Shown here: positions 1-55,927 of the stretch, one piece after another
How the letters are laid out: each line of letters starts with the position of its first letter
How positions within the stretch are numbered: the first letter of the stretch is position 1
IMG/VR virus record: IMGVR_UViG_3300042389_000953
Location: 1-55,927 of that record
Length of the DNA stretch: 55,927 nt
Source of the DNA: a virus
Taxonomy: Duplodnaviria > Caudoviricetes
Reading direction: 5' to 3' (one strand)
Position numbers and translations under genes: made by a program
Notes under the pieces: generated by a model
Database searches by the model: none
Told to the model about the DNA's origin: nothing
What the model saw: only the letters and a program-made list of their open reading frames with translations

Positions 1-70
1 GGCTGAGCTGTAGGGGCTGAGCTGTAGGGGCTGAGCTGTAGGGGCTGAGCTGTAGGGGCTGAGCTGTAGG
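1..70. repeat. Tandem repeat, 14 bp GGCTGAGCTGTAGG x5 (runs off the left edge)
   Basis: Five exact copies read directly. Confidence 0.97.
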
Positions 71-80
71 GGGTGGCCCG

Positions 81-157
81 CCCTCACCCCTCACCCCTCA
101 CCCCTCACCCCTCACCCCTCACCCCTGAGCCCTGAGCCCTGAGCCCTGAGCCCTGAG
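81..157. repeat. Heptamer tandem arrays (CCCTCAC)x6 then (CCCTGAG)x5
   Basis: Read directly; 7-bp phase is kept across the switch at 123. Confidence 0.97.
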
Positions 158-188
158 CCCTGGCCCGCTTAGCTAAGCGTGGCGACGT

Positions 189-314
189 TGCGCACCCTCG
201 CAGTAGCTAACCGCTGCAGAGCTGCGCACCCTCGCAGTAGCTAACCGCTGCAGAGCTGCGCACCCTCGCAGTAGCCAACCGCTGCAGAGCTGCGCACCCT
301 CGCAGTAGCTAACC
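189..314. repeat. Tandem repeat, 34 bp TGCGCACCCTCGCAGTAGCTAACCGCTGCAGAGC x~3.7
   Basis: Copies at 189, 223, 257 (1 mismatch), 291 (partial). Confidence 0.95.
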
Positions 315-346
315 CGCCGCACCTTACGGCCGCCGATCACATCACA

Positions 347-395
347 CTAGCGTGATGTCGTCGGATCTCAGGCACAACGCTAGCGTGATGTCGTC
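347..395. repeat. Direct repeat CTAGCGTGATGTCGTC x2; first copy overlaps imperfect palindrome ATCACACTAGCGTGAT
   Basis: Copies at 347-362 and 380-395. Confidence 0.85.
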
Positions 396-607
396 AGGTC
401 CGAGGCATAACGGTAGTGTGATAGGGTCCTTCCTGGCCCCCCAGACCGCGAGGGGTTTCGAAGCGCAAATTATTCCTAGGCACGACGCTCAAAAGTTGTT
501 TCGATAGCACTAAAAACACACTTATCCCTACCCACAAAAAATCGAAAACCGGCCATGGTAGCACGGAAATCCACCCATGGCCTATAAGCAACGCTACAAT
601 CAGAAAC

Positions 608-1183
608 ATGGCACTGATTTCAAAGGCGGACGCGGCACGAGCCCTCGGCGTTACCAGTGAAGCGGTCTACGCAGCAATTCGTACAAACCGTCTATCGGTG
701 GTACGCACCGGGGACGGTCGTGAACTCGTAAATTCCGCCACCATGCGCGAGGAATGGGACCGCAACACCCAGAAACGCATCGGCCGCGGCCCTAAGCCCC
801 CTGCTGGAACGACCGAACGCACCCCTAAGCGGCCTGGGGAACTGACCCCCCAGGAGCGCCGCGATCAACAGGCCGATTCAGGCGGCAACCTGGCGGAAAC
901 CAACGAGGCCATACCCGATTACAACGAGTCCCGCGCCCGCACCGAGCACCTAAAAGCCGAGCTATTAGAGCTGGAACGCAAGGAAAAAGAGCGAATTTTG
1001 GTAAAAGCGGAGGAAGTTGAGGCCAAATGGGTCGAAATTATCACCATGGCCCGCACTAAGATTTTGGGTATCCCCACAAAGGCCAAACAGCGCATCCCCG
1101 ACCTCGACACCGACGCCATAAGCCTCCTCGACGACATCGTAAGAGAGACGCTGGAAGATCTCGCTGCTAAATCTGACGCCTAA
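608..1183 (+). CDS. terS: Terminase small subunit (Nu1-like)
   Basis: N-terminal HTH (ISKADAARALGVTSEAVYAAI), coiled-coil C-half, directly upstream of TerL. Confidence 0.85.
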   Translation: MALISKADAARALGVTSEAVYAAIRTNRLSVVRTGDGRELVNSATMREEWDRNTQKRIGRGPKPPAGTTERTPKRPGELTPQERRDQQADSGGNLAETNEAIPDYNESRARTEHLKAELLELERKEKERILVKAEEVEAKWVEIITMARTKILGIPTKAKQRIPDLDTDAISLLDDIVRETLEDLAAKSDA

Positions 1184-1193
1184 GTACTTACAC

Positions 1194-5015: not shown

Positions 5016-5079
5016 GCCGCCCCACTGCCCCTTAGCACTTACCGCCCCCACGCCCCACCGCCCCTTAGCGCCTCCGCTT

Positions 5080-8000
5080 ATGGCCAACGTCAACGGCACC
5101 GAGATCAACCTCATGCCCACCAAGGGGATGCGGGCCGAGGCCGAGCGCTACCGCGCCTGGAAGGCCGAGGGACGCAAAGGTGGCACCTCCGTAGCAGCCC
5201 GCCGCGCCACCCAAATCCTCAGCGGTAATGAGCTGAGCCCCGCCACCGTCATCACGATGTCCGCCTGGTTCGCTCGCCACGAAGTGGACAAGCAGGGCGA
5301 CGGCTACTCACCGGGCAGCCCCGCTTATCCGTCACCCGGCCGCGTCGCCTGGGCCGCCTGGGGCGGCGATCCCGGCAAGACCTGGGCCGACGCTAAGGCC
5401 AAAACCATAAAAAGCGCCACCGATAGACTGCACAACACAACAACTATGGCCGTGATGGACGCCACCGCCGATCAGCAACGCGAGCTGACGCCAGACCTTA
5501 CAGCTCCCCAAGTTGCGCTCTACGAAGCCTTGGAGGAAATTGTCGATGATCTCGGTCAGTTTGATCAGGGCATTGGCGCTCACGGCGCTCATTACATGCC
5601 TGTCAGCCCCTTCGCCAGCGAAGGGATGCAGTGCTCCAACTGCATCTTTTACGCCGGCCCTCGCGCTTGCGAAGTCGTCGCTGGCGACATCGCCCCCGAA
5701 GGCGCCTGCAAGTTCTGGATCATCCCAGAACAGCTGCTCACCCCCCAGGCTGACGCCTCAGCCGAAGGCCGTACCGCTACCTCTGCCGATGAAGTGCGCC
5801 TCGCCGCTAAGTCTGTGCGTGACTACGCAGCCCAACGCGCCGCAGCCGGCGAGCTGAGTGAGGGCGATTTCGTTGCCTGGCAGTCCAGCGGTGGCACGGC
5901 CCGCGGGCGCATCGAACACGTCATGCGTACCGGCACCCTCGGCGTCCCCGGCAGCGACTTCAGCATCGACGCCTCCGCCGACGACCCCGCCGCCCTGATT
6001 CGCATCTACCGCCCTAAGCAGGACGGCTGGAGCGAAACCGAAACCCTCGTCGGCCATAAGTTTTCGACGCTCCGCAAGATCGAGCCCCTCGACGAACCTT
6101 CGGACGACAGCGAAGACGACCGCAGCCTGGAACAGCGCCCTTACCCCAACGAACACGCTGCCCGCCTCTTAGACCCCGGCCAGTTCGACCGCTTCCGCCG
6201 CAAGAACAACGACTTCGCCCAAGGTATCGACTCCATTTACGGAATCAAAGGCGACGATCCCGTGCGCCTACAAGCCCTACGCTTCGACGCCGCACGCTTT
6301 ACAGTAAGTGAAGCTAAGAAGTGGCTTAGCGATCACGACTACACGCCCATCTCCTTTGAGCCCGCTACAGGCAAGTCCATGGACGGCAAAATCGACATCA
6401 AGGCCATCAGTAAGGAAGTGCTTAGGCGCGAAGCTCCGCAAGGTCTCCGCGTCGAAGAAAGCACCACTACGGGGCTTACCTTTAGCTTCAGCTCCGAGGC
6501 GCCCGTGGAGCGCTGGTGGGGCCGCGAGGTGCTGATGCACGATGACGGCGCCATGGACCTGGCCCGCATGAACGACGGCGGCCCCTGGCTCTGGAACCAC
6601 AACCGCGACGTGGTGCTCGGCGTCGCCGAAAAAGCCTGGCTTGGCGACGATCGCCGCCTCTACGTCAAAACGAAATGGAGCCCCAACACCACCGAAAAAG
6701 GCACCGAAGAATACAAGCGTCGTCGTGACATCGAAGCGGGCATCGTCCGCAACGTATCCTTCGCCTACGAGATCAACGATGTGCGCGAAGCATCCAACGG
6801 CGACATGCAAGTAGTGGGCTGGAACGTTCTGGAAGTCTCCTCAGTAAGCGTGCCCGCCGACCAGACCGTTGGCCTGGGCCGCGCACTCGACGACACCAAC
6901 ACATCTCCCACGCCACTTACGACGCAAGAAACAAATCAAGCGTCAACCCCTACACTAGAAACTAAGCAGACCGCCGAGCGCGGAGCTGACTTCCCCCAAG
7001 ATCCTCCATCCATGGAACAAGCCACCAACGTTCAGGAGGTCCAATCCGCCGCTCGGCAGTCCGAGCGTGAGCGTGTTGCGGCCATCCGCGCCATGTGCGC
7101 CCAGCACCAGATCGGCACCGATCTGGCTGACACCCTCATCGACAACGAATCCACCCTCGACCAAGCCCGCGAAGCCGTGCTGAACCAAATCGGACGCACC
7201 CGCGTCGAAGTCCAAGGTCGCGTCCATGACGACGACTCCGCCGCCCTCGGCCTCACCGACAAGGAAGTTCGCAGCTTCTCCTTCGTCCGCGCCCTCAACC
7301 ACCTCATCGCCCCCGGCGATCGCGCTGCCCGCGAAGCCGCCGCGTTTGAAATCGAGGTCGGCAAGGCTGCCGCCGAGAAGTATCAGCGCTCCTCCAACGG
7401 CATCGTCATCCCCAACGAAGTGCTCCGCCGCGACCTCGTGGTCGGCACCAGCACCGCCGGTGGCAACCTCGTCTCCACCGATCTGCTGAGCGGCAGCTTC
7501 ATCGACCTCCTGCGTAACCGCATGGCGATGATGCAAGCCGGCGTCACCATGCTGAGCGGCCTCCAAGGCAACGTAAGCATCCCGAAACAATCTTCCGCCG
7601 CGACCGCTTACTGGGTCGGCGAAAGCGGCTCACCCACCGAGAGCCAGCAGGCAATCGAACAGGTGAACATGACGCCCAAGACCGTGGGCGCCTTCGTCGA
7701 TTACAGCCGCCGCCTGCTGCTCCAGGCTTCGATCGACGTGGAGTCGATGATCCGTGCCGACCTGGCCAAGATCATCGCCCTTGAGCTGGACCGCGCTGCC
7801 ATCTACGGCACGGGCTCCACCAACCAGCCCCTCGGCCTGACCAACACCACCGGCATCGGCGCTCAGACGATCAGCACCTTTGGCACCTTCGCCGAGTACA
7901 TCGGCATGGAAACCGACGTGGCGACCGCCAACGCCGACGCCGGCTCGATGCGCTACATCATCAACGCCGCCGCCCGCGGTGCCCTCAAGAGCACCAGCGT

Positions 8001-8253
8001 CGCCGGCACCGAAGCCAAGTTCGTCTACGAGAACGACGAGATCAACGGCTACCCCGTGATCGTGAGCAACCAGCTCGGCAACAACGACTGCCTCTTCGGC
8101 GACTTCTCCCAGTTCGTCGTGGGCATGTGGTCCGGCCTCGACCTCACCGTCGATCCCTACGCCGGCTCCACCGCTGGCACGGTCCGCGTCATCGCCCTCC
8201 AGGACGTTGACTTCGCGGTCAAGCAACCTGGCGCCTTCTGCTTCGGCACCTGA
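5080..8253 (+). CDS. Fused multidomain prohead protease / scaffold / HK97-fold major capsid protein
   Basis: Protease motifs (FSSEAPV, LWNHN, NVSFAY, EVSSVSVPAD) mid-protein; capsid motifs (AYWVGE, TPKTVGA, GTGSTNQPLG, FGDFS) C-terminal; ~460 aa of extra N-terminal domains. Confidence 0.92.
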   Translation: MANVNGTEINLMPTKGMRAEAERYRAWKAEGRKGGTSVAARRATQILSGNELSPATVITMSAWFARHEVDKQGDGYSPGSPAYPSPGRVAWAAWGGDPGKTWADAKAKTIKSATDRLHNTTTMAVMDATADQQRELTPDLTAPQVALYEALEEIVDDLGQFDQGIGAHGAHYMPVSPFASEGMQCSNCIFYAGPRACEVVAGDIAPEGACKFWIIPEQLLTPQADASAEGRTATSADEVRLAAKSVRDYAAQRAAAGELSEGDFVAWQSSGGTARGRIEHVMRTGTLGVPGSDFSIDASADDPAALIRIYRPKQDGWSETETLVGHKFSTLRKIEPLDEPSDDSEDDRSLEQRPYPNEHAARLLDPGQFDRFRRKNNDFAQGIDSIYGIKGDDPVRLQALRFDAARFTVSEAKKWLSDHDYTPISFEPATGKSMDGKIDIKAISKEVLRREAPQGLRVEESTTTGLTFSFSSEAPVERWWGREVLMHDDGAMDLARMNDGGPWLWNHNRDVVLGVAEKAWLGDDRRLYVKTKWSPNTTEKGTEEYKRRRDIEAGIVRNVSFAYEINDVREASNGDMQVVGWNVLEVSSVSVPADQTVGLGRALDDTNTSPTPLTTQETNQASTPTLETKQTAERGADFPQDPPSMEQATNVQEVQSAARQSERERVAAIRAMCAQHQIGTDLADTLIDNESTLDQAREAVLNQIGRTRVEVQGRVHDDDSAALGLTDKEVRSFSFVRALNHLIAPGDRAAREAAAFEIEVGKAAAEKYQRSSNGIVIPNEVLRRDLVVGTSTAGGNLVSTDLLSGSFIDLLRNRMAMMQAGVTMLSGLQGNVSIPKQSSAATAYWVGESGSPTESQQAIEQVNMTPKTVGAFVDYSRRLLLQASIDVESMIRADLAKIIALELDRAAIYGTGSTNQPLGLTNTTGIGAQTISTFGTFAEYIGMETDVATANADAGSMRYIINAAARGALKSTSVAGTEAKFVYENDEINGYPVIVSNQLGNNDCLFGDFSQFVVGMWSGLDLTVDPYAGSTAGTVRVIALQDVDFAVKQPGAFCFGT

Positions 8254-8258
8254 TCGCC

Positions 8259-8483: not shown

Positions 8484-8486
8484 CCA

Positions 8487-10693: not shown

Positions 10694-11857
10694 ATGGCAC
10701 TCCTCACTCGTAAGCGCCTCCTCCTGGCGGAGATCGAGGCCACCTACGGCTCCGACCCCTCTCCCTTGGGCACCGACGCCGTGCTGGTCCGTGACCTCAA
10801 CATCACGCCGGTCCAGAGCGAGAGCGTCAACCGTGACCTCGTTCGTCCTTACCTGGGCGCCTCTGAGCAGCTGCTCGCCAACGTTCGCGTCGAATGCACC
10901 TTCAGCGTTGAACTGGCCGGAAGCGGCGCTGCCGGCACCGCACCCCGCTACGGCTCGATCCTGAAAGCCTGCGGCTTCGCCGAGACCGCCGTCAGTCCCG
11001 CCGTCACCGGCACCGCCACTGCGGGCGCCCTGAACAGCATCACGCTGGCGGTCGGTTCCAGCGCCACCAACGACGCCTACAAGAACCAGATCATCCGCAT
11101 CACCGGCGGCACTGGCAGCGGCACCGTCGCGCTCGTCACCGGCTACGTGGGCTCTACCCGCGTCGCCTCCCTCCGCGCCCTTGCCGGCGACGTCACCCCT
11201 GACAACACCAGCGTCTACAGCATCGGTCTCCAGACCATCTACACCCCCGTCAGCAGCGCTTTCAGCTCGGTAACCCTCTACTACAACATTGACGGGGTTC
11301 TCCACAAGCTCACCGGCGCCCGTGGCACGTTCTCACTGAACACCACTGTCGGCCAGATCCCGACCCTCGACTTCACGATGACGGGCATCTACAACGCCCC
11401 CACCGACACCGCCGCGCCTTCCGTAACCTACGCCGACCAGGCCGCACCGCTCGTCTTCAAGGCAGGCAACAGCGGCGGCTTCAACCTCCTCGGCTACTCC
11501 GGCTGCCTCCAGTCGGTTGCCATGGACATCGGCAATAGCATCATCTACCGCGAACTCGTCGGCTGCACCAAGGAAGTGCTGCTCACCGATCGCTCGGTGT
11601 CCGGCACCGCAACGATCGAAGCACCCACCATCGCAGGGAAGGACTACTTCACCACCTCTCTCACCGACAACGCTCTCGGCGATCTTTCCTTCATCCATGG
11701 AACGACCGCCGGTAACATCGTCTCGCTGGTTTCCAACCGCGTGGACATCGGAGCGCCCAGCTACTCCGACCAGGACGGCATCCATATGCTCGCCCTGCCC
11801 TACACCGCTGTGCCCTCCACCACCGGCAACGACGAGATCCGCCTGATCTACGCCTGA
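10694..11857 (+). CDS. Major tail tube protein with inserted domain
   Basis: Position before chaperones/TMP; E..YG.D, LKACGF, GARGTFS motifs. Confidence 0.85.
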   Translation: MALLTRKRLLLAEIEATYGSDPSPLGTDAVLVRDLNITPVQSESVNRDLVRPYLGASEQLLANVRVECTFSVELAGSGAAGTAPRYGSILKACGFAETAVSPAVTGTATAGALNSITLAVGSSATNDAYKNQIIRITGGTGSGTVALVTGYVGSTRVASLRALAGDVTPDNTSVYSIGLQTIYTPVSSAFSSVTLYYNIDGVLHKLTGARGTFSLNTTVGQIPTLDFTMTGIYNAPTDTAAPSVTYADQAAPLVFKAGNSGGFNLLGYSGCLQSVAMDIGNSIIYRELVGCTKEVLLTDRSVSGTATIEAPTIAGKDYFTTSLTDNALGDLSFIHGTTAGNIVSLVSNRVDIGAPSYSDQDGIHMLALPYTAVPSTTGNDEIRLIYA

Positions 11858-11880
11858 GCCACGCCGCCGCGCACCACCAG

Positions 11881-11911
11881 CCCCCTAAGCCACGCCGCTT
11901 AGGGGGTTTTT
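11881..11911 (+). terminator. Intrinsic terminator after tail tube gene
   Basis: Perfect 10-bp stem CCCCCTAAGC/GCTTAGGGGG, 6-nt loop, TTTTT. Confidence 0.88.
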
Positions 11912-31113: not shown

Positions 31114-31566
31114 ATGGCCGCAAACACCTCACCGATCTGGACGCTGACCCCCAACGTCTCAGGCGTTGACATCACAAACACGGTTGCAAACGTCAACACC
31201 ACCGCCCCCGGCACCATCGGGACCAACTGTTTCCTGGCGTTCACTTCCGGCGCAGACGGCTCCTACCTGCAGAAGATCCGCTTCTGCTTCGTTTCAACCA
31301 CTGGCGTTATCTCTCCCGTCGCCGCAACATTGCAGGTGTATTTGTCCACCATCAACACTGGTGCGACAACTTCAGCCAACACTGACTTGATCGCTCAAGT
31401 CCATGCCGCACCGCAAACAATTACGCTGGTCACAGCAGCACCATACCCGATTGAAATTCCTTTGAATTTTGCAATCCCGGCCAGCAGGTACATCTTAGTA
31501 ACCCAGTCCGTTGCTCAAACCACCAACGCCAACTGGCACGCAGTTGTAATCGGGGGTAACTACTAA
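31114..31566 (+). CDS. Putative virion protein
   Basis: [11 protein letters not shown]-terminus, GGNY end; fibre block. Confidence 0.65.
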
Positions 31567-32510: not shown

Positions 32511-32520
32511 GCGGGTACTA

Positions 32521-37987: not shown

Positions 37988-38865
37988 ACAAGCCTCACTG
38001 ATTTCAAGCGCAGACGCATTTTAAGGTGTGCAGCCTCGATGCGCTGCCTGATGCGTTCTCTTGAAACATTATCCTCAGCTGCGATGCTCGACAATGACAT
38101 CGGTTCGCCGCCATTAAGCCCGTATCTGCGCTGGATCGTAAGCAGTTCGCCTTCAGTTAGGCAAGCGAGGGCGATCTGGAACATCGCCTGTTTTTCATCC
38201 TTCTCCATGCAATCCTTCTGCCTATCCAGCGAATCGGTGTCAGGGATAAGCTCCAGGATCGGACTACCCGTCTCACTTACTAAGGCATCGAGGCTGCGAT
38301 GCCAGGCGTTCCGGGCTAGCAGCGTCTGCATGTGCGCAACCTCAACATCTGCCTCTGCCGCCATCTGCGCAACAGTTGGCATCTTGCCGTGCTCCTGCAA
38401 ATGCGCTTTCTGAAAGCGCACCACCTTATACACCTTGTCGAGTCCGTGCTGCGGAACACGGATAAGCCGCTCCTTAGCGTCAATGCCCCGCGTAATTGCC
38501 TGCCTTACCCACCAATAGGCGTAAGTGGAGAACTTATAGCCCTTACTACTATCGAATAGCTCAACGGCGCGTGTAAGCCCAAATGCACCTTCCTGTACTA
38601 AGTCCATAAGTTCCATGCCGCTGCCATTTAGCCGCCGCGTGTACTGCTTAGCAACACTGACAACCAACCTAAGATTGCAGTTAATCAGCTTACGCTTAGC
38701 GCGTTCAGCCACCTTAAGTGTGCGCTTCTCTTGAGCACTAAGTTCCTGCTTATCGGCTAGGGCAGTGCCGCATTCGATTTGACGCGCTAGTTGAATCTCC
38801 TGTTCCGCGGTAAGCAGCGGATACCTAGCGATTTCGTTTAAGTAATCCTTAACAGAGTCGGTCAT
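37984..38865 (-). CDS. RNA polymerase sigma-70 factor, RpoD/group-2-like (no region 1.1)
   Basis: YLNEIARYPLLTAEQE, NLRLVVSVAK, DLVQEG, GYKFSTYAYWWVRQAITR, VSRERIRQ. Confidence 0.95.
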   Translation of the reverse strand: MTDSVKDYLNEIARYPLLTAEQEIQLARQIECGTALADKQELSAQEKRTLKVAERAKRKLINCNLRLVVSVAKQYTRRLNGSGMELMDLVQEGAFGLTRAVELFDSSKGYKFSTYAYWWVRQAITRGIDAKERLIRVPQHGLDKVYKVVRFQKAHLQEHGKMPTVAQMAAEADVEVAHMQTLLARNAWHRSLDALVSETGSPILELIPDTDSLDRQKDCMEKDEKQAMFQIALACLTEGELLTIQRRYGLNGGEPMSLSSIAAEDNVSRERIRQRIEAAHLKMRLRLKSVRLV

Positions 38866-38919
38866 AAGCTTGATGGGGATTTGCGTAGGTTACCAAGCAA
38901 CGCGGTTAAGCGCTGCAGC

Positions 38920-39138
38920 TTACTCTTGGCCTGGTTCAAGCAGCTTTACAGTTCGTCGCCTTCCAGCCTTTTCGATCCACCGGAAAGCATCGCTGGGTAG
39001 GAGCAGCTCAGGCGCCTGGAGCGTGTACCAGCGGTGCTCACACGCTTGGCAATGCCTCCTTCTTACGATCTGATCACCATCGGCATAAGCCGTCATAACA
39101 ACGCTATTGCGCTGGCACGCACATCCTGGGCATCGCAT
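38920..39138 (-). CDS. NrdR-like zinc-ribbon protein lacking the ATP cone
   Basis: MRCPGC....V......IVRRRHC..C..RW.T. Confidence 0.75.
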   Translation of the reverse strand: MRCPGCACQRNSVVMTAYADGDQIVRRRHCQACEHRWYTLQAPELLLPSDAFRWIEKAGRRRTVKLLEPGQE

Positions 39139-39143: not shown

Positions 39144-39473
39144 CTAAATTACCGTCTTAGTGTTGAATTGGGGGTCTGATTCGTCCAGACCATGGGCCAG
39201 CGGATCGAACGAGCCTTCGACATTAGCATCCCCAACAGGCGCTGGAACGTCCCCCTTCCTCTTAGCATCCATGTCCGCCAAGCTGCTAAGCCACGAGTCC
39301 AACGCCTCGCGCATAGGTAGCCCCTTCCCAACACTTAGGAAGCGGCGCAACTCTTTCACGTCGCGCACGAACACCGAAGTGCCGCTGGAGTAGGCGATAA
39401 AGTAGCGCCCATTGTAATCGCGCCCAGTCTCGATAGATTGGTGCAAACTCAGGCGTAGGGTGTCGCGCTTCAC
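39144..39473 (-). CDS. Hypothetical protein
   Basis: Coupled ORF in leftward operon. Confidence 0.65.
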   Translation of the reverse strand: MKRDTLRLSLHQSIETGRDYNGRYFIAYSSGTSVFVRDVKELRRFLSVGKGLPMREALDSWLSSLADMDAKRKGDVPAPVGDANVEGSFDPLAHGLDESDPQFNTKTVI

Positions 39474-40129
39474 TGCTCAGCCTCCCGCTTAGGCACCGGC
39501 TCAATAGTTGTTACGCAGTGTCGCTCAATGATCAGCTTGTGGGGGCCATGTTGCGAGTAGGTCTGCAGGTAGCGATTGCCTTCTCGTTTAACATCATCCA
39601 AGCTGTAGGCGGATCCACCGGCCTGCCACTCACCCTCGGCGTCGTGCAGTTCCCAGGCGTAGTGAACGTCCTCCCGCTTAGGCACCGGCTCGATGGCGGG
39701 GCGGCCCCACAAAGGCACAGGCTCTTTGTTGCCCGACTTGAAGCGGGCAACCTTTTCGTCAAGCGTTACTTTCCAGTTCTCACGCCAGCGTTCTCCATCG
39801 AAGTCGGGTTCACCTCGGTACATCCATGCCGTCGGCCCCTGCGGCTCGGGCCTGGCGTGTTGCCAGCGGCTGTCGGGATGGCTCAAGATTGCCTCCGCCA
39901 ACGCAGCAGCGCCTTTGTCGTGGTTGCCGTCAACCCTACGGATGATTGCAGCCAAACGCAGAATGTCATCTACTTCGGGCATTGGCCCCTGCGGCTCGGG
40001 CTGGGCTTCCAGGGCGGCGCGGGCGCGATAAACCAAGGCGTCTTTGTTGGAGGGTGCCGTCATGTATCTGTTGATGCACCACTCGTAGGCTTCAACCAGC
40101 TCAGCGCACAGCGCACGGAAGTCAATCAT
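39470..40129 (-). CDS. Modular hypothetical protein with internal PEPQGP and IEPVPKRE repeats
   Basis: DFRALCAEL N-terminus; ATGA coupling. Confidence 0.75.
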   Translation of the reverse strand: MIDFRALCAELVEAYEWCINRYMTAPSNKDALVYRARAALEAQPEPQGPMPEVDDILRLAAIIRRVDGNHDKGAAALAEAILSHPDSRWQHARPEPQGPTAWMYRGEPDFDGERWRENWKVTLDEKVARFKSGNKEPVPLWGRPAIEPVPKREDVHYAWELHDAEGEWQAGGSAYSLDDVKREGNRYLQTYSQHGPHKLIIERHCVTTIEPVPKREAEQ

Positions 40130-40629
40130 TGGTTTGCTTGGTCATAAAGGGCATTGACGACGATGCCGCGATCGACGGGCCAAAGATCCAAAGGAGCTTC
40201 ATTAAGCCACAAGGCCACCTTCCGGATCGCCGTGCGTGCCATGGAGTTCTGATCCTTGATACTCTCCATCAAGGCATCGCCTACCTGCTGCACCAGCGAG
40301 CTTTCAATTTGAGAGGAATCAGGAGATGGCTTAATCTTGGGTAGCAACTGGTCAAGGGCTTGCTGCACCTGATCCGGTGTTAGCCGCAGCGGCTTGCTGA
40401 TTTGATAAACCTTTGACGCTTCGCGTTCGGCAGCCTCTAGCGACTCGACTCGTGTAAACAAAGCCACGATGTTGGAATTGGTTTCGACAACGTGCTTGTG
40501 CGTCGCAGCTTCTAGCGTTTCAATCCTGGCGCGGAGTTCAAGAATTGCAGAGCAATCAGAGCTGCCAACTACATCGGCGCATTTCTGAACTTGGTTCCAC
40601 TGATCGGACGTTGCTTTGTAATCAGTCAT
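40126..40629 (-). CDS. Hypothetical protein
   Basis: MTDYKATSDQW...ILELRARIETLEA; coupled. Confidence 0.7.
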   Translation of the reverse strand: MTDYKATSDQWNQVQKCADVVGSSDCSAILELRARIETLEAATHKHVVETNSNIVALFTRVESLEAAEREASKVYQISKPLRLTPDQVQQALDQLLPKIKPSPDSSQIESSLVQQVGDALMESIKDQNSMARTAIRKVALWLNEAPLDLWPVDRGIVVNALYDQANQ

Positions 40630-40706
40630 TGAGAGCTTCCAGTGCACGGCGAATAATCTTTACTTGGTCCGTATCAAACACAATAAGCTGGGGTGAAGTC
40701 AGTCAT
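40622..40706 (-). pseudogene. Possible frameshifted remnant of a small gene
   Basis: Coupled start MTDFTP and coupled end ...KIIRRALEALND are out of frame (85 nt). Confidence 0.35.
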
Positions 40707-48398: not shown

Positions 48399-48496
48399 GC
48401 TGCGGCACCGCTAAGCGTAAGCTGCTGCACACATAAGCTGATGTGCGGTAGATTCACCCTTACGCTTAGTTGGGTATGAGTACGCATGAGGAGTAA

Positions 48497-49378
48497 GTGT
48501 TGCACCACTTACTCCTTTTTTGTGTAAGCTGTTACAGCTACGTTGCGTTGCTGTCGTTGTCCACTCTTGATCCCACCGAAGCACTAAGCGGCTTAGCTAA
48601 GTGGAAGCTGGAGCGTGACGACGAAAGTGACCCTAATGGGCGTATTTACCGCGATAAGCAGGGTGAAATTTACCATAGCGTTACCCGTATTCTTAAAGAG
48701 ACCAGTAATAGCAAGGCGGCGTTGGAAGCTTGGGCCGCCCGCTTAGGCGAAGAACGCGCCGCCCAGGAGCGCGACACCGCAGCGCAACGCGGCACGCTCA
48801 CCCACAACTGCGCCGAGTACCTGCTGCGCACCGCCAAGCGCATGGCCGACTCCACCGCTAAGCGCCGCAACTCCTGGTACACGAAATCAGACGGCCTAGG
48901 CCGCGCTCCGGCTCCTCTCACCAGATGGGCACTTACCCAGGTGCTGCCCAGCGTCCCTAAGGCCGGTCTTAGTGCTGCCGGCTATCGCCGCGGCTTGCTC
49001 GGCTGGATAAGCGAAAACGTAACCGCAATCCACGCCATTGAATTTAGCGTGCATCATCCTGCAGGTTTCGCCGGCACCTGCGACGGACTAATCGACTATA
49101 AAGGTAAGGGGCCTTTCGTCGCAGACTGGAAAACCTCCTTCAACAAACGCTCCGAAGAACTCCTTACCGACTACACCGACCAGATCGGCGCCTACAGCCT
49201 CGGCCTACGCCACCTAACCGGCATCCAAGCCGTAGGCGGCCTCATCGTCGTAGCACGCCGCGCCGGTAAGCCGGATGTGCGCGAACTAAGCGCCTTGGAA
49301 GTGCGTGGCGCCGAATGCCGCTACTTAGAGCGCTGCGAAGCCTACTTCGATGCGTTGCATAAGCAGCTAAGCAGCTGA
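48497..49378 (+). CDS. PD-(D/E)XK exonuclease (Cas4/RecB-like); true start probably downstream
   Basis: HSVTRIL, RGT..H, FAGTCD.L, DWKTS, Q..AY. Confidence 0.88.
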   Translation: MLHHLLLFCVSCYSYVALLSLSTLDPTEALSGLAKWKLERDDESDPNGRIYRDKQGEIYHSVTRILKETSNSKAALEAWAARLGEERAAQERDTAAQRGTLTHNCAEYLLRTAKRMADSTAKRRNSWYTKSDGLGRAPAPLTRWALTQVLPSVPKAGLSAAGYRRGLLGWISENVTAIHAIEFSVHHPAGFAGTCDGLIDYKGKGPFVADWKTSFNKRSEELLTDYTDQIGAYSLGLRHLTGIQAVGGLIVVARRAGKPDVRELSALEVRGAECRYLERCEAYFDALHKQLSS

Positions 49379-50427: not shown

Positions 50428-51120
50428 ATGGCTCGCACAATCGAGTTCGACGTGGAGCGCATCTTCCGTAAGCTGAATGTGCTGGAAGGTACGCAGATCA
50501 AATACGCCGCTAAGCGGACCATGGCTCGCTTCGGCTATGAGGCCCGCGAGTACCTTGTAATGAAGATGGTAGGTAGCTTTAAGAATCCCGTTGACTACAC
50601 ACTACAGTCACCGCTATACGATAAGCAGCTAATTGAAACACCTAACAGCGTCGCCGTAAGATTATACATTAGCACTGATAGCTCTAAAGGTAATGCGCCA
50701 ACCTCCTACCTTTACCCGGTGGATCGCGGTAGCGCATCCAACGAGGCCTACTTAGGCCGCTTTGCACGCGGCTTGGCTAAGACTGGCGTAACGACTAAGT
50801 TTCCGGTGCCGTATAAGCAAGGTTCTAAAGTACAGCGCAATAAATTCGGCAATATGGAAGGTAGCCAGTACCAAGAGGTGCTAAAAGCGGTGCAGCGGAA
50901 AGGTGGAACGATCTTCGCCCTGCCGAACGGCTCCCCAGGCGGCCTGCTGCCTCCCGGCATCTACAAACGCGAGGGCCGATCCGCCTTCCTCCTCTTCGCG
51001 CTCCTCAACAGCACTCCTACCGTCTACTCCCCATTCGACTCCTACAACGCCGTCCGCCTTCTGGCCAACCAACGCCTCCCTAAGCTGATAGGCGAAGAAC
51101 TGGCCAAAGCCCTGCGCTAA
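50428..51120 (+). CDS. Basic phage protein, possibly neck/minor tail (gpZ-like)
   Basis: Q..YA....M..., F.NP..YT, N.FGN, GIY.R pattern. Confidence 0.5.
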   Translation: MARTIEFDVERIFRKLNVLEGTQIKYAAKRTMARFGYEAREYLVMKMVGSFKNPVDYTLQSPLYDKQLIETPNSVAVRLYISTDSSKGNAPTSYLYPVDRGSASNEAYLGRFARGLAKTGVTTKFPVPYKQGSKVQRNKFGNMEGSQYQEVLKAVQRKGGTIFALPNGSPGGLLPPGIYKREGRSAFLLFALLNSTPTVYSPFDSYNAVRLLANQRLPKLIGEELAKALR

Positions 51121-51252
51121 GCTGCGCCGCTAAGCTGCGCCGCTGCGCTGCTGCGCCGCTTAGCTTACGTTTTACAACACCCCTTACACGACCCCTTACC
51201 CCGCTTCAGCTTACGTGTGCTACGCTTACTCGTGTTCAACCCCTTAGCACCG

Positions 51253-51984
51253 ATGCTTACACCCCTTATCCGCCTGGCCGACGCCGCCTACCGCGCTGGC
51301 GTCCCCCTTATGTCAGACGCCGCCTTCGATCGCCTGGCCAGCCTCGCCCCCAACGCCCTGCCCCCACTTTCCACGCTGCTTAGCCTCGACTGCCACCCCG
51401 ACCCGCACGACTGGCTGGAGCGCAACCCCGGCCCCTACGCCGTCCAACTCAAAGCCGACGGCGTAAGCGTCAACCTCGTCTACCTCGACGGCCGCTTCAG
51501 CCACGCCCACCTACGCAGCGGCCGTGACTGCACCGATGCTGCCCTCCGCGCTGGTGCGCTGCTCGACCTCCCCGGCTCCCCCGTGGGCCGCGTCGAAGTC
51601 CGCTGCGAGGCCATGGCGTTCGCCTACACAAACCCCGGCAAGCCCCCCACCCGCAACGCCTGCGCCGCCGCCCTCCGCCGTAAGGGGCTGCAGGACAAAC
51701 TCAACCTCAGCCTGCTCGCTTTCGACATCACCGGCATCGACGCCATCACCACACACTGCGGCGCCCTCACTTGGCTCAAGTGCGCCGGCTTCGCCACCCT
51801 CGACGCCCTGGAAGCCGCCACCGCCACCGAGGTGCTTGAGCTGTTCGACGCCTTCTGCGTCTGCCAGCCCACCCTGCCCTTCCCCTGCGACGGCATCACC
51901 GTCAAGCTCGACTCCAAGATCCGCCAACGCCAGCTCGGCAACGACTCCCGCGCCCCTAAGTGGGCGATAAGCATGAAGCCGTAA
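51253..51984 (+). CDS. Stand-alone NAD-dependent DNA ligase adenylation domain
   Basis: AY....PLMSDAAFD (Ia), KADG (I), EVRCE (III), RNACAAALR, DGITVK (IV), PKWAISMK (V) then stop. Confidence 0.85.
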   Translation: MLTPLIRLADAAYRAGVPLMSDAAFDRLASLAPNALPPLSTLLSLDCHPDPHDWLERNPGPYAVQLKADGVSVNLVYLDGRFSHAHLRSGRDCTDAALRAGALLDLPGSPVGRVEVRCEAMAFAYTNPGKPPTRNACAAALRRKGLQDKLNLSLLAFDITGIDAITTHCGALTWLKCAGFATLDALEAATATEVLELFDAFCVCQPTLPFPCDGITVKLDSKIRQRQLGNDSRAPKWAISMKP

Positions 51985-52884: not shown

Positions 52885-52938
52885 GCGCTACGCCGCCCAA
52901 CTGCCCCTTACCCCTTACCCCTTACCACGCCGCAGCTT

Positions 52939-53115
52939 ATGACCCTCCTACCGTTTACCTGCAGCGCGTCCCGTCCTGGTGCGCCACTTATCCGCATCGG
53001 CATCCTGGCCCGCTCCAAGAGCGACGCCCACACCACCGCCACCGAACTCTTCCCCGCCTATACCATCGGCCTTGTCGAACTCAGCCCCGAGTGGACCGAT
53101 AAGCACGACGCCTAA
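52939..53115 (+). CDS. Small hypothetical protein (58 aa), not in ORF track
   Basis: MTLLPFTCSASRPGAPLIRIGILARSKSDAHTTATELFP... Confidence 0.5.
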   Translation: MTLLPFTCSASRPGAPLIRIGILARSKSDAHTTATELFPAYTIGLVELSPEWTDKHDA

Positions 53116-53153
53116 GCTTCCACGCATCCAAGCACCTACGCCGCCCCTTACTT

Positions 53154-53351
53154 ATGACAGCATCCAACCTGCAACTTACGCAGCTTAAGCGTTACTGGTT
53201 CCAGATCGAGTCCACTAACCAAATCCAGTGCGTGTGGGCCGTAAGCTTTACCGAGGCCAAAGACAAAGCCGCTAAGCGTTACCTACCGCAGTGGCGTGGC
53301 ATCAGCTGGATCGACGTAAGCGGCGGCACCTCCACAGGGCGAGACTCATGA
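53154..53351 (+). CDS. Hypothetical protein
   Basis: KRYWFQI.....V.A.SF.EAK.KA. Confidence 0.55.
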   Translation: MTASNLQLTQLKRYWFQIESTNQIQCVWAVSFTEAKDKAAKRYLPQWRGISWIDVSGGTSTGRDS

Positions 53352-53403
53352 GTCTCACACCCCAGCGCCTAAGCTCCGCCACTCCCCTTACCCCTTAGCA
53401 CCT

Positions 53404-53712
53404 ATGCCGCGCCTCCTTACCCGCCACCAACTGCTAAGCCTCTACTACACCATCCCCACCACCTCCACTTACGAAGACCGCTTAGTCGCCTATGGCAATG
53501 CGGTCCAGTCCTGGCTAAGCAGCCCCGAATCGGAAGATCCGCGCAGCCCGCTCTCCTCCCTCTGCTTACCGCAGCGCATTTACGGCGCCCTCCGCCGCGC
53601 CGGCTACACCTACGTCGATGACGTGCGCAACGCCACCGACGCCCAACTGCTCAGCGCCCGCGACTTCGGCCCTAAGGGGTTGCGCCTGCTCCGCCAAGCG
53701 CTAAGCGGCTAA
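53404..53712 (+). CDS. Protein with RNA polymerase alpha-CTD-like domain
   Basis: L..L.L..R.Y.AL.RAG...V.D......L....FG.K.L..L..AL. Confidence 0.75.
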   Translation: MPRLLTRHQLLSLYYTIPTTSTYEDRLVAYGNAVQSWLSSPESEDPRSPLSSLCLPQRIYGALRRAGYTYVDDVRNATDAQLLSARDFGPKGLRLLRQALSG

Positions 53713-53859
53713 GCGGCTAAGAGGCGGTGGAACGCTCACCGCTGAGCCTGTGTTACAAAATCTTACGTGGCCTGGCTGTCCAGCCTAAGTGGGCGGCGAT
53801 GCCTTAATGTACTTGCACAGCGCACCAATAGCGCTCCCCCACCCCTTCACTTAAACACC

Positions 53860-54990
53860 GTGACTTACCTGCTCACCAACCAGGCCACCCACTCCGACAC
53901 CACCGAGGCCCGCAGGGTCTCACGGATGCAGCGCCACGAGATCACCAGCGGCTACAGCCGTGACCGCCACCTCCTGCTCACCTCGCCGCCGCAGATCGCA
54001 CTGCAGGCCGGTGGTACGCCCATCGGCCCCGACGCCACACCCCGCCAAGCCTTCGCCGCAGCCGGCGCCGACTTCGCCGTAAGCGCGAAGCCGATCGCAT
54101 TCGACAACGCTGTCGAGTACGGCGGCGATGCCCCTGAGTCCGACTGGCGCTGCGTAAGCAGCCACAAGGCGATCGTCCGCGAGGACATCGGCCGCTGCCT
54201 GGGCATTGTGGGTCGTAATTACACCCCCGTTCAGAACGAAGCGCTCATCGGCCTCTTCGACTTCCTGCACGAAGACGCCAAGATCGACAACATCGTCACC
54301 CTGCGCCACGGCGCTAAGACGATCGTGACCGCATCCCTGGCGATCGAAGGTGAGGTGAAAGAGGGCGACACCATCCGCCGCTACCTGCACGCCTTCAACA
54401 GCTTCGACGGCAGCAGCAGCCTTGGCGTGTTCTTCAGCGACATGCGCATGGTCTGCAGCAACCAGATCTCTTACATCACCGGCAAGGGCGCCCGCAAAGC
54501 CTCCAAGGCTGGCGAGGGCCTGCTGATGCGCCACACCTCCGGTGTGCAGGAGTTCGCCAAGCGACTGCCCCAGCTCATCGACCTGCAGAACCGCTGCTTT
54601 GAGCAAGACCTCGCCGAGCTGCGCCCCCTCACCACCATGCGCCTCACCACCGAGGCGGCCCGCGCCATCCTTGAGGCCACCTTTGCCGACAAGCTGAGCA
54701 CCCCCGTCACCGACAAGGACAGCGGCAAGAAGCGCCAGCGCACCCTCGACGACCTCACCGAAATCCCCCTCATCCGTTCCCACTACGGCAAGGGCACCGG
54801 CATCGGCATCGACACCGCCGACAAGTCCGTCTGGAACATGCTCCAAGCCATCACCCAGAACCAAACCCACGACCTGGGCCGCGGCGCCACCGACCTGGAC
54901 CGTGCCCGTGCCCGCCTGGAATCCCTCTGGGGCGGCGACTCCGCCAAGCGCATCGCCCGCGCTAAGCAGGCGTGTCTCGCCGCTATCTAA
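53860..54990 (+). CDS. DUF932/DUF945-family phage/plasmid protein; start uncertain
   Basis: LGIVG..YTPVQN, NSFDGSS, R.VCSN, RHT, W....A.T....H. Confidence 0.85.
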   Translation: MTYLLTNQATHSDTTEARRVSRMQRHEITSGYSRDRHLLLTSPPQIALQAGGTPIGPDATPRQAFAAAGADFAVSAKPIAFDNAVEYGGDAPESDWRCVSSHKAIVREDIGRCLGIVGRNYTPVQNEALIGLFDFLHEDAKIDNIVTLRHGAKTIVTASLAIEGEVKEGDTIRRYLHAFNSFDGSSSLGVFFSDMRMVCSNQISYITGKGARKASKAGEGLLMRHTSGVQEFAKRLPQLIDLQNRCFEQDLAELRPLTTMRLTTEAARAILEATFADKLSTPVTDKDSGKKRQRTLDDLTEIPLIRSHYGKGTGIGIDTADKSVWNMLQAITQNQTHDLGRGATDLDRARARLESLWGGDSAKRIARAKQACLAAI

Positions 54991-55054
54991 GCCGTAGCGC
55001 TGCTTAGCCGCAGCGCTACTTAGCCGCAGCGCTGCTTAGCCGCAGCGCTACTTA
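54991..55054. repeat. 16-bp tandem repeat GCCGYAGCGCTRCTTA x4
   Basis: Read directly. Confidence 0.92.
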
Positions 55055-55082
55055 GCCCCACTTACCCCTCGCCCTACCAACC

Positions 55083-55370
55083 ATGTCTACGTCCCTCCTC
55101 TACTTAGCCGACCACTTCACCTACGAGCAGCGCATAAGCCCGCCGCCGACCGCCTACGGCCGCACCGCCTCGGGCTACGGCAACAGGATCGCCACCGATT
55201 GGCTGGTACGCATAAGCGGCAGCACTGGTACGCAGCCCGCTCTCTACGGCGGCGACTGCCGCTGGCGCCGCGTCTACGCGACCTGCTGGAGCAACTCCGC
55301 CTCCCTCTGGGTAAACGTGCCGGGGCATCGCTTCTACTTCCGCGACTGCGACCTAAGCCACACGGCGTAA
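55083..55370 (+). CDS. Hypothetical phage protein
   Basis: TASGYG.RI.T...RRVY..CWSN motif. Confidence 0.65.
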   Translation: MSTSLLYLADHFTYEQRISPPPTAYGRTASGYGNRIATDWLVRISGSTGTQPALYGGDCRWRRVYATCWSNSASLWVNVPGHRFYFRDCDLSHTA

Positions 55371-55629
55371 AACGCTGGTACGACAGCGCTCCACTAAGCC
55401 TGGAGCGCTAAGCTAATAAGTTTTAAGTTGCGCTTGGAAAAATTTGAGACATGCGCACTGCCGGTTCTTTAAGCAAAATTTTACGCACGCCTAAGCCGAA
55501 AAATTTAGGAACTTGCGGGGGGTCGGTTCTTAAGGCACTTTTTCACACACACAAACTTACACAACTTCTCGCACCCCCTCACCCACTCCGGCAGCGAGGC
55601 GGCGCCCCGCGCCCCCACAGCTCCCGCCG

Positions 55630-55724
55630 TGTACACCTGTACTATAGTACAAGTGTACGCTAGTACAGCCGTACCTATAGTACAGCCGTACCGTAGTACA
55701 GCCGTACGCTAGTACAGCCGTACT
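55630..55724. promoter_or_regulatory. Array of 12 GTAC at 8-bp period (LexA-box-like GTAC-N4-GTAC)
   Basis: GTAC at 55631, 39, 47, 55, 63, 71, 80, 88, 96, 55704, 12, 20; the repeat is certain, the function inferred. Confidence 0.55.
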
Positions 55725-55776
55725 GCCCCTGCCGGCCCATGCGGTCATGCCGGTAGCGTTATAAGGGGTTAGGTAG

Positions 55777-55927
55777 GCTAACCCGCTGAGAGTTAGGTGA
55801 GCTAACCCGCTGAGAGTTAGGTGAGCTAACCCGCTGAGAGTTAGGTGAGCTAACCCGCTGAGAGTTAGGTGAGCTAACCCGCTGAGAGTTAGGTGAGCTA
55901 ACCCGCTGAGAGTTAGGTGAGCTAACC
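55777..55927. repeat. 24-bp tandem repeat GCTAACCCGCTGAGAGTTAGGTGA x6.3 (runs off the right edge)
   Basis: Exact copies; each contains CTAAC-N9-GTTAG inverted repeat. Confidence 0.97.

Follow-up and report, generated by a model that had tools for sequence, protein, structure and literature searches.

The subject of this study is a four-letter DNA word, TAAG, together with its reverse complement CTTA, in the virus record IMGVR_UViG_3300042389_000953 (Duplodnaviria; Caudoviricetes). The record is complete at 55,927 bp with a G+C content of 58%, and its full length is referred to here as the window. Its genes include those for a terminase, a lambda-type portal, a 1,057-aa protease-capsid fusion, a tape-measure protein, tail proteins, and an endolysin. 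A leftward gene block encodes a dNMP kinase, a sigma-70-family factor, a family A DNA polymerase, and a PriCT-2/AAA_25 primase-helicase, and a rightward block encodes an SSB-like protein, a PD-(D/E)XK nuclease, an NAD-ligase-type adenylation domain, a protein resembling the C-terminal domain of the RNA polymerase alpha subunit (alpha-CTD), and a DUF932 protein. The nearest named phages are cyanosiphoviruses, with 46% identity to the terminase of S-LBS1 and 42–44% to the sigma factors of S-CBS1, S-CBS3, and KBS-S-2A. Window DNA has been recovered in lake-water metagenomes from public sequencing runs, and the 24 runs containing it were available as assembled contigs only, with no raw or long reads. 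Four RNA runs contain just 0.05–0.08 of the sampled window words and give no evidence of expression. A scan of the window against Rfam at gathering thresholds returned no matches, a tRNA scan returned no genes, and a megablast search of 5080-12000 against a phage collection returned no match.

The whole phage genome (1..55927) bears 611 TAAG/CTTA sites, one per 91 bp, with 326 TAAG and 285 CTTA on the plus strand. Zero-order base composition predicts 141 and 151 copies, respectively (observed/expected 2.31 and 1.89), a second-order Markov model predicts 213 and 217 (TAAG ratio 1.53), and under both models TAAG has the highest ratio among all 256 tetranucleotides. Across 100 dinucleotide-preserving shuffles, the mean was 320.3 sites with a standard deviation of 18.1 and a maximum of 353, such that none reached the observed count, which exceeds the mean 1.9-fold. 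To control for coding content, we shuffled synonymous codons 200 times in the 65 called genes while leaving protein and codon usage unchanged. TAAG was found 249 times against 125.0±9.4 expected (z 13.2) and CTTA 241 times against 143.2±8.5 (z 11.4), an approximately 2.0-fold excess; z ranged from 11 to 14 across runs, and a run over all tetranucleotides ranked TAAG first and CTTA second. Codon-order shuffles predict even fewer copies (104 TAAG and 130 CTTA). A genome-wide over-representation of this word had been proposed in a sequence-only reading of the same DNA, and it is borne out by both kinds of shuffle.

Several features of the excess point to the DNA itself rather than to its translation. 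Other words beginning with TAA are not raised in the codon shuffles (TAAC 92 vs 121, TAAA 82 vs 79, TAAT 100 vs 81), which argues against selection for hidden stop codons, and CTAG, TTAA, and GTTA are depleted. On the sense strand, TAAG falls in the frames xTA-AGx (110) and xxT-AAG (138), and CTTA in CTT-Axx (126), xCT-TAx (45), and xxC-TTA (66), so that the word does enter genes through atypical codon junctions, as the sequence-only reading had noted. The balance between TAAG and CTTA is near-symmetric in each gene block (167:156, 78:62, 78:64). The 33 true intergenic segments (2,850 bp in total) contain 74 sites, whereas their own base composition predicts 13.9, a 5.3-fold excess, and 200 neighbor-preserving swaps of the same segments gave 48.4±4.7 sites with a maximum of 61. 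The antisense excess equals the sense excess and the effect is strongest between genes, which places the cause at the level of DNA and argues against one in translation. Pairing with the 3' end of 16S rRNA is likewise disfavored, as enrichment is lower for TAAGG than for TAAGC.

The effective word is V-TAAG-B, with C, G, or A at position -1 and C, or less so G or T, at position +1; its strongest form is C/G-TAAG-C. Counts of TTAAG and TAAGA match expectation, whereas the strongest hexamers are CTAAGC (118 vs 25) and GTAAGC (93 vs 25). GCTAAGC (37 copies) and the non-palindromic CGTAAGC (36 copies) are equally frequent, and the former occurs just as often as its hexamers predict (37.4), with GCTAAGC/GCTTAGC fully accounted for by sub-words. 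The best octamer, CGCTAAGC, has 21 copies against 1.2 expected. Since k-mers above 5 nt are explained by their sub-words, the excess reflects neither a palindrome nor a dispersed repeat. A longer repeat or a fixed spacing is disfavored by the absence of any spacing peak other than 11 CTTAAG overlaps and a few counts of 7–9. The preference for C beside the word on the plus strand accompanies a surplus of C relative to G along the whole of this strand. Gene boundaries also use the word: 22 of 65 genes stop with TAAG, 21 of them with TAAGC, and 10 of 65 open with CTTATG, although together these contexts explain no more than 32 sites in the genome. In 4–5 of the eight folded intergenic regions, predicted hairpins form between TAAGC and GCTTA arms, and a clear terminator-like predicted stem followed by a U-run lies at 11886-11912. 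In the codon usage of the phage, AAG makes up 70% of lysine codons and AGC 40% of serine codons.

To place the imprint among relatives, 140 related IMG/VR loci were collected via the primase and the capsid protein. Loci with at least 66–76% primase identity or 80% capsid identity to the window carry TAAG at 1.1–3.0 times expectation, whereas more distant relatives carry it at 0.1–1.08 times, nearly all below 1. In a capsid tree built without loci shorter than 6 kb and without two duplicates (of the contigs G001 and G004), all 20 TAAG-high rows and three rows at 1.08–1.15 group in one fully supported clade (100/100) subtended by a long branch (0.52), and the 19 rows outside it range from 0.11 to 0.48. 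Codon-shuffle z values for TAAG/CTTA follow the same division, at 11.6/6.8, 4.7/5.5, and 4.5/5.4 in the TAAG-rich contigs G001, G002, and G003 and at -6.1/-2.6 and -0.9/-2.2 in the TAAG-poor contigs G004 and G005, where the values indicate avoidance or neutrality. A further contig, L246, is TAAG-rich at 2.9 times expectation, and the cultured cyanosiphoviruses S-LBS1 and S-CBS3 stand at 0.44 and 0.28. The tree traces the excess to a single origin on the branch that leads to this clade, and it has stayed at a similar level in genomes now diverged to approximately 66–88% protein identity. The excess is therefore a real, strong, and clade-specific imprint at the DNA level.

The TAAG-poor sister clade (L104-L133 and G004) has top words of its own, TGATCAGC/GCTGATCA (45 vs 3.4), and the top tetranucleotides of the sister phages are GATC, ATCA, and TGAT, matching Cyanobium-type genomes as well as S-LBS1 and S-CBS3.

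A broader change in composition accompanies the imprint. Relative to G004 and G005, TAAG/CTTA (+1.8 on a log2 scale), CTAA/TTAG (+1.45), and others (+0.5 to +0.9) are raised in the clade. Values of rho(TA) are 0.93–1.00 in four TAAG-rich genomes against 0.52 in G004 and 0.74 in G005. Among loci of at least 10 kb, the 16 that are TAAG-rich have a median of 0.88 (0.83–1.05) and the 54 that are TAAG-poor a median of 0.69 (0.42–0.81), with no overlap. The clade has lost the usual depletion of TpA, and TAAG stands well above parity on top of that loss. The sequence-only reading had singled out an excess shared by all TA-containing tetranucleotides as evidence against a word-specific imprint; no such excess exists within the genome, whereas in comparison with relatives, the 13 most-raised tetranucleotides all contain TA. 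It is conceivable, if quite unlikely in our judgment, that a lifted constraint is sufficient: TpA avoidance was lost, and TAAG rose most of all by fitting codons, stop and start contexts, and hairpin stems. The separation of the rho(TA) ranges and the TA content of the most-raised words agree with this account, as do the TAA-GC stop and CTT-ATG start contexts, the GC-clamped hairpin stems, and the preference for AAG and AGC codons described above. However, relief from avoidance yields parity and not a 2–5-fold excess, other TA-containing words do not rise in the codon shuffles (z -3.1 for TAAC, 0.4 for TAAA, and -1.8 for TATG), and the antisense excess is just as strong as the sense excess. 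The intergenic excess and the small share of sites at start and stop codons likewise speak against it. These figures suggest that a model combining TpA parity, codon usage, and stop/start contexts would fail to reproduce the 5-fold intergenic and 2-fold antisense excesses.

Sites are densest at 38401..38940, where 18–19 fall within 400 bp across the N-terminal half of the sigma gene and the DNA just upstream. The sigma-70-family gene (37984-38865, minus strand) contains 27 sites against a codon-shuffle expectation of 11.7, and its product matches Pfam regions 1.2, 2, 3, and 4. It is the densest gene in all three clade genomes compared, with 30.6 sites per kb in the window, 25.1 in G001, and 16.0 in G002 against 1.2 in the TAAG-poor G005. 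The PD-(D/E)XK nuclease gene (48497..49378, plus strand) is the second densest with 20 sites, and its density in clade genomes is 22.7 (the window), 18.6, 14.5, and 10.2 sites per kb against 0.0 in G005. As side features of this region, the phage encodes a full sigma-70-family factor spanning regions 1.2–4, and a NrdR-like zinc-ribbon protein (38920-39138, minus strand) adjoins the sigma gene. Elsewhere, a free-standing 102-aa protein has an RNA polymerase alpha C-terminal domain (53404-53712, plus strand).

Between genes, the richest clusters hold seven sites each. At 48399..48496, TAAGC and GCTTA arms lie in a predicted hairpin (minimum free energy -37.7, z -1.9), and at 51121..51216, a tandem repeat of CGCTAAGCTGCGC (x2.3) accompanies a predicted GCUAAGC...GCUUAGC hairpin (z -2.15). 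Six sites at 54981..55082 fall within a 16-nt tandem repeat of CGCTACTTAGCCGCAG (x4.8) with a fold z of -4.06. Five sites at 52885..52978 comprise CCCCTTA three times and then CTTATG at a start codon, with no stable predicted fold (z +0.51), and five at 5016..5079 comprise a stop TAAGC followed by CTTA four times, the last of which is CTTATG at a start codon. The gap at 3063-3164 holds five sites and that at 37062-37124 holds two. The local claims of the sequence-only reading fared well against exact counts. Its hand count of about 20 sites at 38521-38940 is exact (11 TAAG and 9 CTTA), the five intergenic gaps that it called saturated contain 5, 5, 2, 7, and 7 sites within an intergenic excess of about 5-fold, and the capsid domain is nearly site-free as described.

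That capsid domain (7200..8250, plus strand), part of the 1,057-aa protease-capsid fusion, has just two sites, one TAAG and one CTTA, in 1,051 bp. The fusion itself is a single open reading frame (5080-8253, plus strand) with Hva1_TUDOR-like, prohead protease (S78), and HK97-type capsid domains; long 'major head' genes are present in S-CBS3 and S-LBS1 too. The longest site-free stretch (1,038 bp; 10848..11886, plus strand) lies in the presumed major tail gene, which has a G+C content at third codon positions (GC3) of 0.85 and a ratio to its own codon-shuffle expectation of 0.79. This ratio varies little among long-resident core genes (1.6–2.8) but drops to roughly 1 or lower in several tail-fiber genes, the major tail gene, the SSB gene, and accessory genes missing from L001, a relative with 98% identity. 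Two such accessory genes (39470..40647, minus strand) have ratios of 1.28 and 0.67. The two core genes with the highest GC3 (0.85–0.87) show no excess, and these are presumably the most highly expressed.

The imprint is also missing from tail-fiber-associated and glycosyltransferase genes at 31114..33621 (plus strand), with ratios of 1.06, 0.32, and 1.8 and 1–4 sites each. Part of this region has counterparts in the TAAG-poor G005: positions 13347-16400 of G005 and 29593-33621 of the window share a collagen-repeat fiber gene (81% amino acid identity in the best segment), and their group-1 glycosyltransferases are 85% identical at the amino acid level, while other G005 genes are at most 60% identical to the window. 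On sequence identity, this looks like a recent swap of host-range genes between TAAG-rich and TAAG-poor phages. The exchanged genes carry little or no imprint, with the exception of the collagen-like gene.

Phages usually resemble their hosts in oligonucleotide usage. The imprint was compared with candidate hosts. The closest cellular relatives of the sigma factor (37–42% identity) carry cyanobacterial labels, mostly of picocyanobacteria, with two metagenome-assembled genome (MAG) records labeled otherwise. In 80 cyanobacterial loci around those sigma genes, which stand for candidate hosts, TAAG has an observed/expected ratio of 0.04–1.17 with only one locus, of 3 kb, above 1, and it ranks 80–253 of 256 against first in the window. 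In Cyanobium-type loci, the leading tetranucleotides are GATC, ATCA, and TGAT, as in the TAAG-poor sister phages. The octamer CGCTAAGC has 9–30 copies in five whole picocyanobacterial genomes against 72–129 for a reversed-word control, and at most approximately 295 copies per 4.8 Mb (~61/Mb) in 401 cyanobacterial genomes, at least 8-fold below its density in the window (28 copies in 0.056 Mb, or 501/Mb). As far as this is testable, and on condition that the host is a cyanobacterium, the imprint does not appear to be host-like.

A clade infecting a TAAG- and TpA-rich host, perhaps a non-cyanobacterial one, could nevertheless have drifted to the composition of that host. The general tendency of phages to mirror host usage would favor this explanation, as would the GATC/TGAT/ATCA signature that the sister phages, S-LBS1, and S-CBS3 have in common with Cyanobium-type genomes. 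Yet none of the 80 loci is TAAG-rich, and the scarcity of CGCTAAGC extends across all 401 cyanobacterial genomes. The glycosyltransferase and fiber genes held in common with G005 further suggest an overlapping host range with a TAAG-poor phage. We regard a host signature as improbable.

The sequence-only reading had proposed looking for a gene (HNH, exonuclease, ligase-like domain, or primase) that co-occurs with the enrichment, and none of the candidates tested is confined to the TAAG-rich phages and present in all of them. The HNH gene is found in G004 and in many TAAG-poor loci at 38–51% identity, the dNMP kinase in G004 at 48% identity, and the PD-(D/E)XK nuclease, SSB-like protein, polymerase (PolA), and primase are all present in G005. 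The sigma factor occurs in the TAAG-poor G005, S-LBS1, and S-CBS3. The window's type of primase is found in TAAG-poor relatives at 46–57% identity and is missing from the TAAG-rich G001. In the latter contig (L225), an 858-aa DUF3987 primase-helicase (7969-10545, minus strand), non-homologous to the PriCT-2/AAA_25 protein of the window, sits between the polymerase and SSB-like genes, which amounts to a module swap within the clade; G004 has neither a polymerase nor a primase of its own.

A gene pair at 50428..51984 (plus strand), encoding a 230-aa protein and a 255-aa ligase-like protein, at first seemed exclusive to the clade, as it is present in all five TAAG-rich contigs covering the region and missing from G004, G005, and each of 18 TAAG-poor primase loci. 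It was rejected when both homologues were found in eight TAAG-poor loci (L244, L245, L247-L251, and L262; observed/expected 0.44–0.95). The 230-aa protein (50428-51120, plus strand) is a DUF6441-like 'minor tail protein' by PHROG. Its structural model is poor (predicted local distance difference test score, pLDDT, 64.5), with no Foldseek match in PDB at E<=0.001 and nothing below E 0.5 among PDB sequences, and in the ESM Atlas, it falls in viral clusters only, with DUF6441 and Minor_tail_Z on 11–14% of members. The 255-aa protein (51217-51984, plus strand) has only domain Ia and the adenylation domain of an NAD-dependent ligase with the KxDG motif; motifs I (KADG), III, IV, and V are present, and OB, zinc-finger, HhH, and BRCT domains are absent. 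It is similarly short in G001 (253 aa), and its gene always adjoins the 230-aa gene, including in unrelated TAAG-poor phages.

With respect to evolutionary dynamics, individual sites are not preserved. At codon pairs with conserved amino acids, TAAG/CTTA is retained no better than other tetranucleotides in seven comparisons with relatives of 98% to 66% identity; in L002, for example, 16/29, 8/16, and 10/20 sites are retained against 0.41–0.62 for other words. Density nevertheless persists, as the gene-by-gene values given above for the sigma and nuclease genes recur in relatives within the clade. Mutational input was assessed from rare synonymous variants, defined by a minor allele in at most two sequences, across approximately 12.6 kb covered by at least six close sequences. 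TAAG gains numbered 20 against 22.1 expected from context-free rates and losses 18 against 22.0. A doubled TAAG input is rejected (P(<=20 gains) 4e-5), and a 1.5-fold input is rejected at P 0.01. Overall, 470 rare synonymous variants are A/T-directed and 127 G/C-directed, whereas TAAG gains and losses stand at 20:18 (Fisher p 5e-4). Under a stationary composition, most A/T-directed changes would be removed over time; gains and losses of TAAG are nonetheless in balance. Taken together, these results place the cause at fixation, as selection or biased conversion, and not at mutational input.

A context-dependent input, in which a clade-specific polymerase, nucleotide-pool effect, DNA modification, or host deaminase favors TAAG (for example through C>T in CAAG), is accordingly highly improbable. 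Where close relatives differ from the window at TAAG sites, transitions are indeed the most frequent change (CAAG 58+17, TGAG 40+23, and TAGG 30+29, tallied once per relative and hence not independent), and the phage encodes a family A polymerase and a dNMP kinase. Against this, TAAG-creating C>T changes number 16 against 19.8 expected among the rare synonymous variants, CAAG is not depleted, the kinase is also present in the TAAG-poor G004 and the polymerase in G005, and no base-replacement genes (thymidylate-synthase-like, PurZ-like, or transglycosylase domains) were found among the scanned proteins.

Dcm/Vsr very-short-patch repair, an analogue suggested in the sequence-only reading, raises CCWGG, lowers CTAG, and reshapes tetra- and pentanucleotide frequencies genome-wide. 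In a different process, motif-directed mismatch repair or biased gene conversion could act during frequent recombination between co-infecting relatives and resolve heteroduplex mismatches within or beside near-TAAG words toward TAAG, with no function required of the word. Such a process would act at fixation, as the rare variants require, and would predict no positional conservation, a uniform genome-wide ratio, and no imprint in new genes; the phage also encodes its own nuclease, SSB-like protein, PolA, and ligase-like enzyme. Elhai's model proposes a drive of this kind for HIP1, an iterated cyanobacterial word (PMC4390886). We nonetheless consider this process unlikely. Very-short-patch repair drains transition neighbors, and those of TAAG are undepleted in the synonymous shuffles (z of +1.0 for CAAG, +0.3 for TGAG, +2.9 for TAGG, and +0.4 for TAAA), while the depleted neighbors are scattered transversions (TAAC -3.4, GTTA -5.0, TCAG -2.5, and AAAG -2.8). 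Neither a Vsr-type endonuclease nor a C5-methyltransferase is among the 46 window proteins scanned against Pfam, and the PD-(D/E)XK match is to PDDEXK_1 and not to the Vsr family model. No methyltransferase domain of any kind was detected in these 46 proteins or in the 10 compared with PHROGs, a scan in which small and tail-module open reading frames were partly covered and which leaves a host enzyme possible. In addition, the recombination and replication genes are common to the TAAG-poor G005.

The sequence-only reading had taken the C>T/G>A route to TAAG from preferred codons as a sign of directed repair. The undepleted neighbors and the 20 rare gains against 22.1 do not support this interpretation; synonymous alternatives lie one transition away because an A/T-rich word is set in a G/C-ending codon usage. 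Its other suggestion, selection for a site recognized by a protein, remains the best reading, while the repair route is unsupported.

We therefore tentatively favor, at somewhat less than even confidence, a lineage-specific DNA imprint kept by a fixation bias, most simply weak selection on the copy number of V-TAAG-B and not on its position. Under weak selection of this kind, the density of [C/G/A]-TAAG-[C/G/T] would be what is selected, and individual sites, which turn over at the background synonymous rate, would be interchangeable. The reader of the word may be of low specificity, a protein or process acting on phage DNA for which many interchangeable copies help, and its candidate roles include replication priming, recombination, nucleoid-type coating, and nuclease protection. 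As the word is 10–100 times rarer in picocyanobacterial DNA, it could mark phage DNA against that of the host, and such a role is plausible. The action would be slow and genome-wide, in keeping with the lack of an excess in newly acquired genes.

Several observations weigh against this preference. Selection and biased gene conversion fit these data alike and cannot be told apart. The shared TA of the 13 most-raised tetranucleotides indicates that the effect stems in part from a general relaxation of TpA avoidance and is to that extent not specific to the word. The rare-variant test covers only approximately 12.6 kb of the structural region, has small counts, uses metagenomic contigs as a proxy for a population, and presupposes a stationary composition, and in unpolarized counts, TAAG is no unique outlier among words with three A/T letters (gain/loss 1.03, with six at or below this value). 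No candidate gene is exclusive to the clade, as each one tested is found in TAAG-poor phages or is missing from a TAAG-rich one. The single origin provides no independent contrasts, and because the imprint arose once, gene-association tests have no statistical power. Finally, sites are unevenly spaced, with gaps of up to 1,038 bp and no preferred spacing, which argues against a need for regular sites.

Other compositional features of the window were also recorded. A second over-represented word, CTGG[A/T][A/G]CG, occurs for example on the plus strand at 804, 971, 1744 ... 55400; CTGGAACG, CTGGAGCG, and CTGGTACG combined have 44 copies on the plus and 19 on the minus strand against 3.0 expected per strand. 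As the word appears in all three frames, in intergenic DNA, and in antisense, a peptide effect can be dismissed. It is strongly polar in G001 (16:1), is enriched also in TAAG-poor relatives sharing the replication module (29:12 in G005; pooled CTGGAACG 97 vs 4.8), and is approximately 3-fold raised in picocyanobacterial loci. The most avoided words in the codon shuffles of the window are GACC/GGTC and GGACC (GACC 189 vs 262, z -6.8; GGACC 24 vs 50, z -4.5), with GGCC, CCGG, CGCG, and CTAG likewise avoided, and these presumably fit GGWCC-type and other restriction sites. GC skew is negative on the plus strand throughout, at -0.09 (608-37100), -0.12 (37101-47815), and -0.18 (47816-55660). Since C also exceeds G in the block with minus-strand genes, the skew tracks the DNA strand independently of transcription. 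This points to replication in one direction or to some other process that distinguishes the strands.

The ends of the record (1-422 and 55631-55927) are non-coding and packed with differing perfect tandem arrays, of 14 nt x5.1, 7 nt x11.7, 34 nt x3.7, and 33 nt x2.3 on the left and of 16/33 nt x5.8/2.9 and 24 nt x6.7 on the right. If the record is circularly closed, these arrays would join into an iteron-rich region of approximately 870 bp that might serve as an origin or a packaging site. TAAG is not enriched in them (six sites).

The imprint belongs to a known class of iterated genomic words, although it differs from those described. HIP1 (GCGATCGC), the highly iterated palindrome of cyanobacteria, is 15–300-fold over-represented according to PMC5861425, and its function is debated, with selection and methylation-linked repair both proposed (PMC5861425 and PMC4390886). 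TAAG resembles HIP1 as a short word found on both strands, in and between genes, and partly via synonymous codons. However, HIP1 is a cellular 8-bp palindrome with conserved sites and cognate orphan methyltransferases, whereas TAAG is a property of a phage clade. The effective word is of 4–6 nt, non-palindromic, and only 2–5-fold enriched; its sites are unconserved, no methyltransferase was found among the scanned proteins, and the candidate hosts do not have it. The HIP1-like label given in the sequence-only reading is thus only a loose analogy that fails on the defining features, and HIP1 itself occurs in the window once per strand against 1.5 expected. A term search of PMC4390886 gave no hits for TAAG, CTTA, phage, Cyanobium, or GCTNAGC, and our literature search found no report of a TAAG excess in phages.

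Chi and the polar words KOPS and AIMS (FtsK-orienting polar sequences and architecture imparting sequences) are short, matter through their density, are read by a DNA-processing machine, and can tell self from foreign DNA. TAAG is similar as a short DNA word for which density, not exact position, would count. These words are strongly strand-polar and enriched in host chromosomes; TAAG, by contrast, is nearly balanced between the strands (326 vs 285) and under-represented in candidate hosts. The second word of the window, CTGG[A/T][A/G]CG, looks more Chi- or KOPS-like than TAAG.

DNA uptake sequences and uptake signal sequences (DUS/USS) are lineage-specific self-marks of which many copies double as terminator hairpin arms, a feature comparable with the predicted TAAGC/GCTTA hairpins of the window. 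They differ from the phage word as 9–12-mers found approximately once per kb in competent bacteria with a known receptor, and we know of nothing comparable in a phage. Primases also start at short words, d(CTA)/d(TTA) for some DnaG primases and GTC for that of T7. These words are short and degenerate, lie on both strands, and matter through density alone, and TTA and CTA are contained in CTTA and CTAAG. To our knowledge, no genome-wide enrichment of primase initiation words has been described; moreover, the TAAG-rich G001 has a non-homologous primase, and TAAG-poor relatives keep the window's type.

T5-like phages combine site-specific nicks with a phage NAD-dependent ligase, and the clade encodes an NAD-ligase-type adenylation domain (KxDG) and an HNH endonuclease. 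Known nicked genomes have a handful of sites with a long consensus, in contrast to the approximately 600 TAAG sites found here, and the ligase-like and HNH genes occur in TAAG-poor phages too. The baculovirus late promoter, (A/G/T)TAAG, is read by virus-specific transcription machinery and has the same core, and the phage encodes its own sigma factor. In this case, hosts and polymerases are unrelated, and the phage word has C or G at -1 and occurs on both strands and within genes at one per 91 bp. Sigma homologues are also present in TAAG-poor phages.

A stronger version of the favored reading is that the phage lineage has evolved its own iterated 'self' word, with V-TAAG-B at approximately one per 40–90 bp set against host composition and read by a phage or host factor. 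This version is possible, and we hold it with distinct reservation as a rather doubtful proposal. Replication, recombination, protection, or packaging would then target phage rather than host DNA, and the same adaptation would include the loss of TpA avoidance. If true, this would make the word an equivalent of HIP1, Chi, or uptake sequences that belongs to the virus itself.

Phages are expected to mirror the oligonucleotide usage of their hosts, which is the basis of host prediction, and this clade departs sharply from that expectation in both TAAG and the near-universal depletion of TpA. Because it departs from its relatives as well as from candidate hosts, composition-based host prediction is misleading here. 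The clade is a tractable system with a small genome, a short word, and TAAG-poor sister phages as natural controls. If the word is read by a protein, this phage lineage would provide a simple and testable case of a virus marking its own DNA by sequence alone, and with it a way into the long-standing question of the function of HIP1 and similar iterated words. If biased repair is the driver instead, the imprint would illustrate clearly how a motif can be driven up in a virus without any adaptive role.

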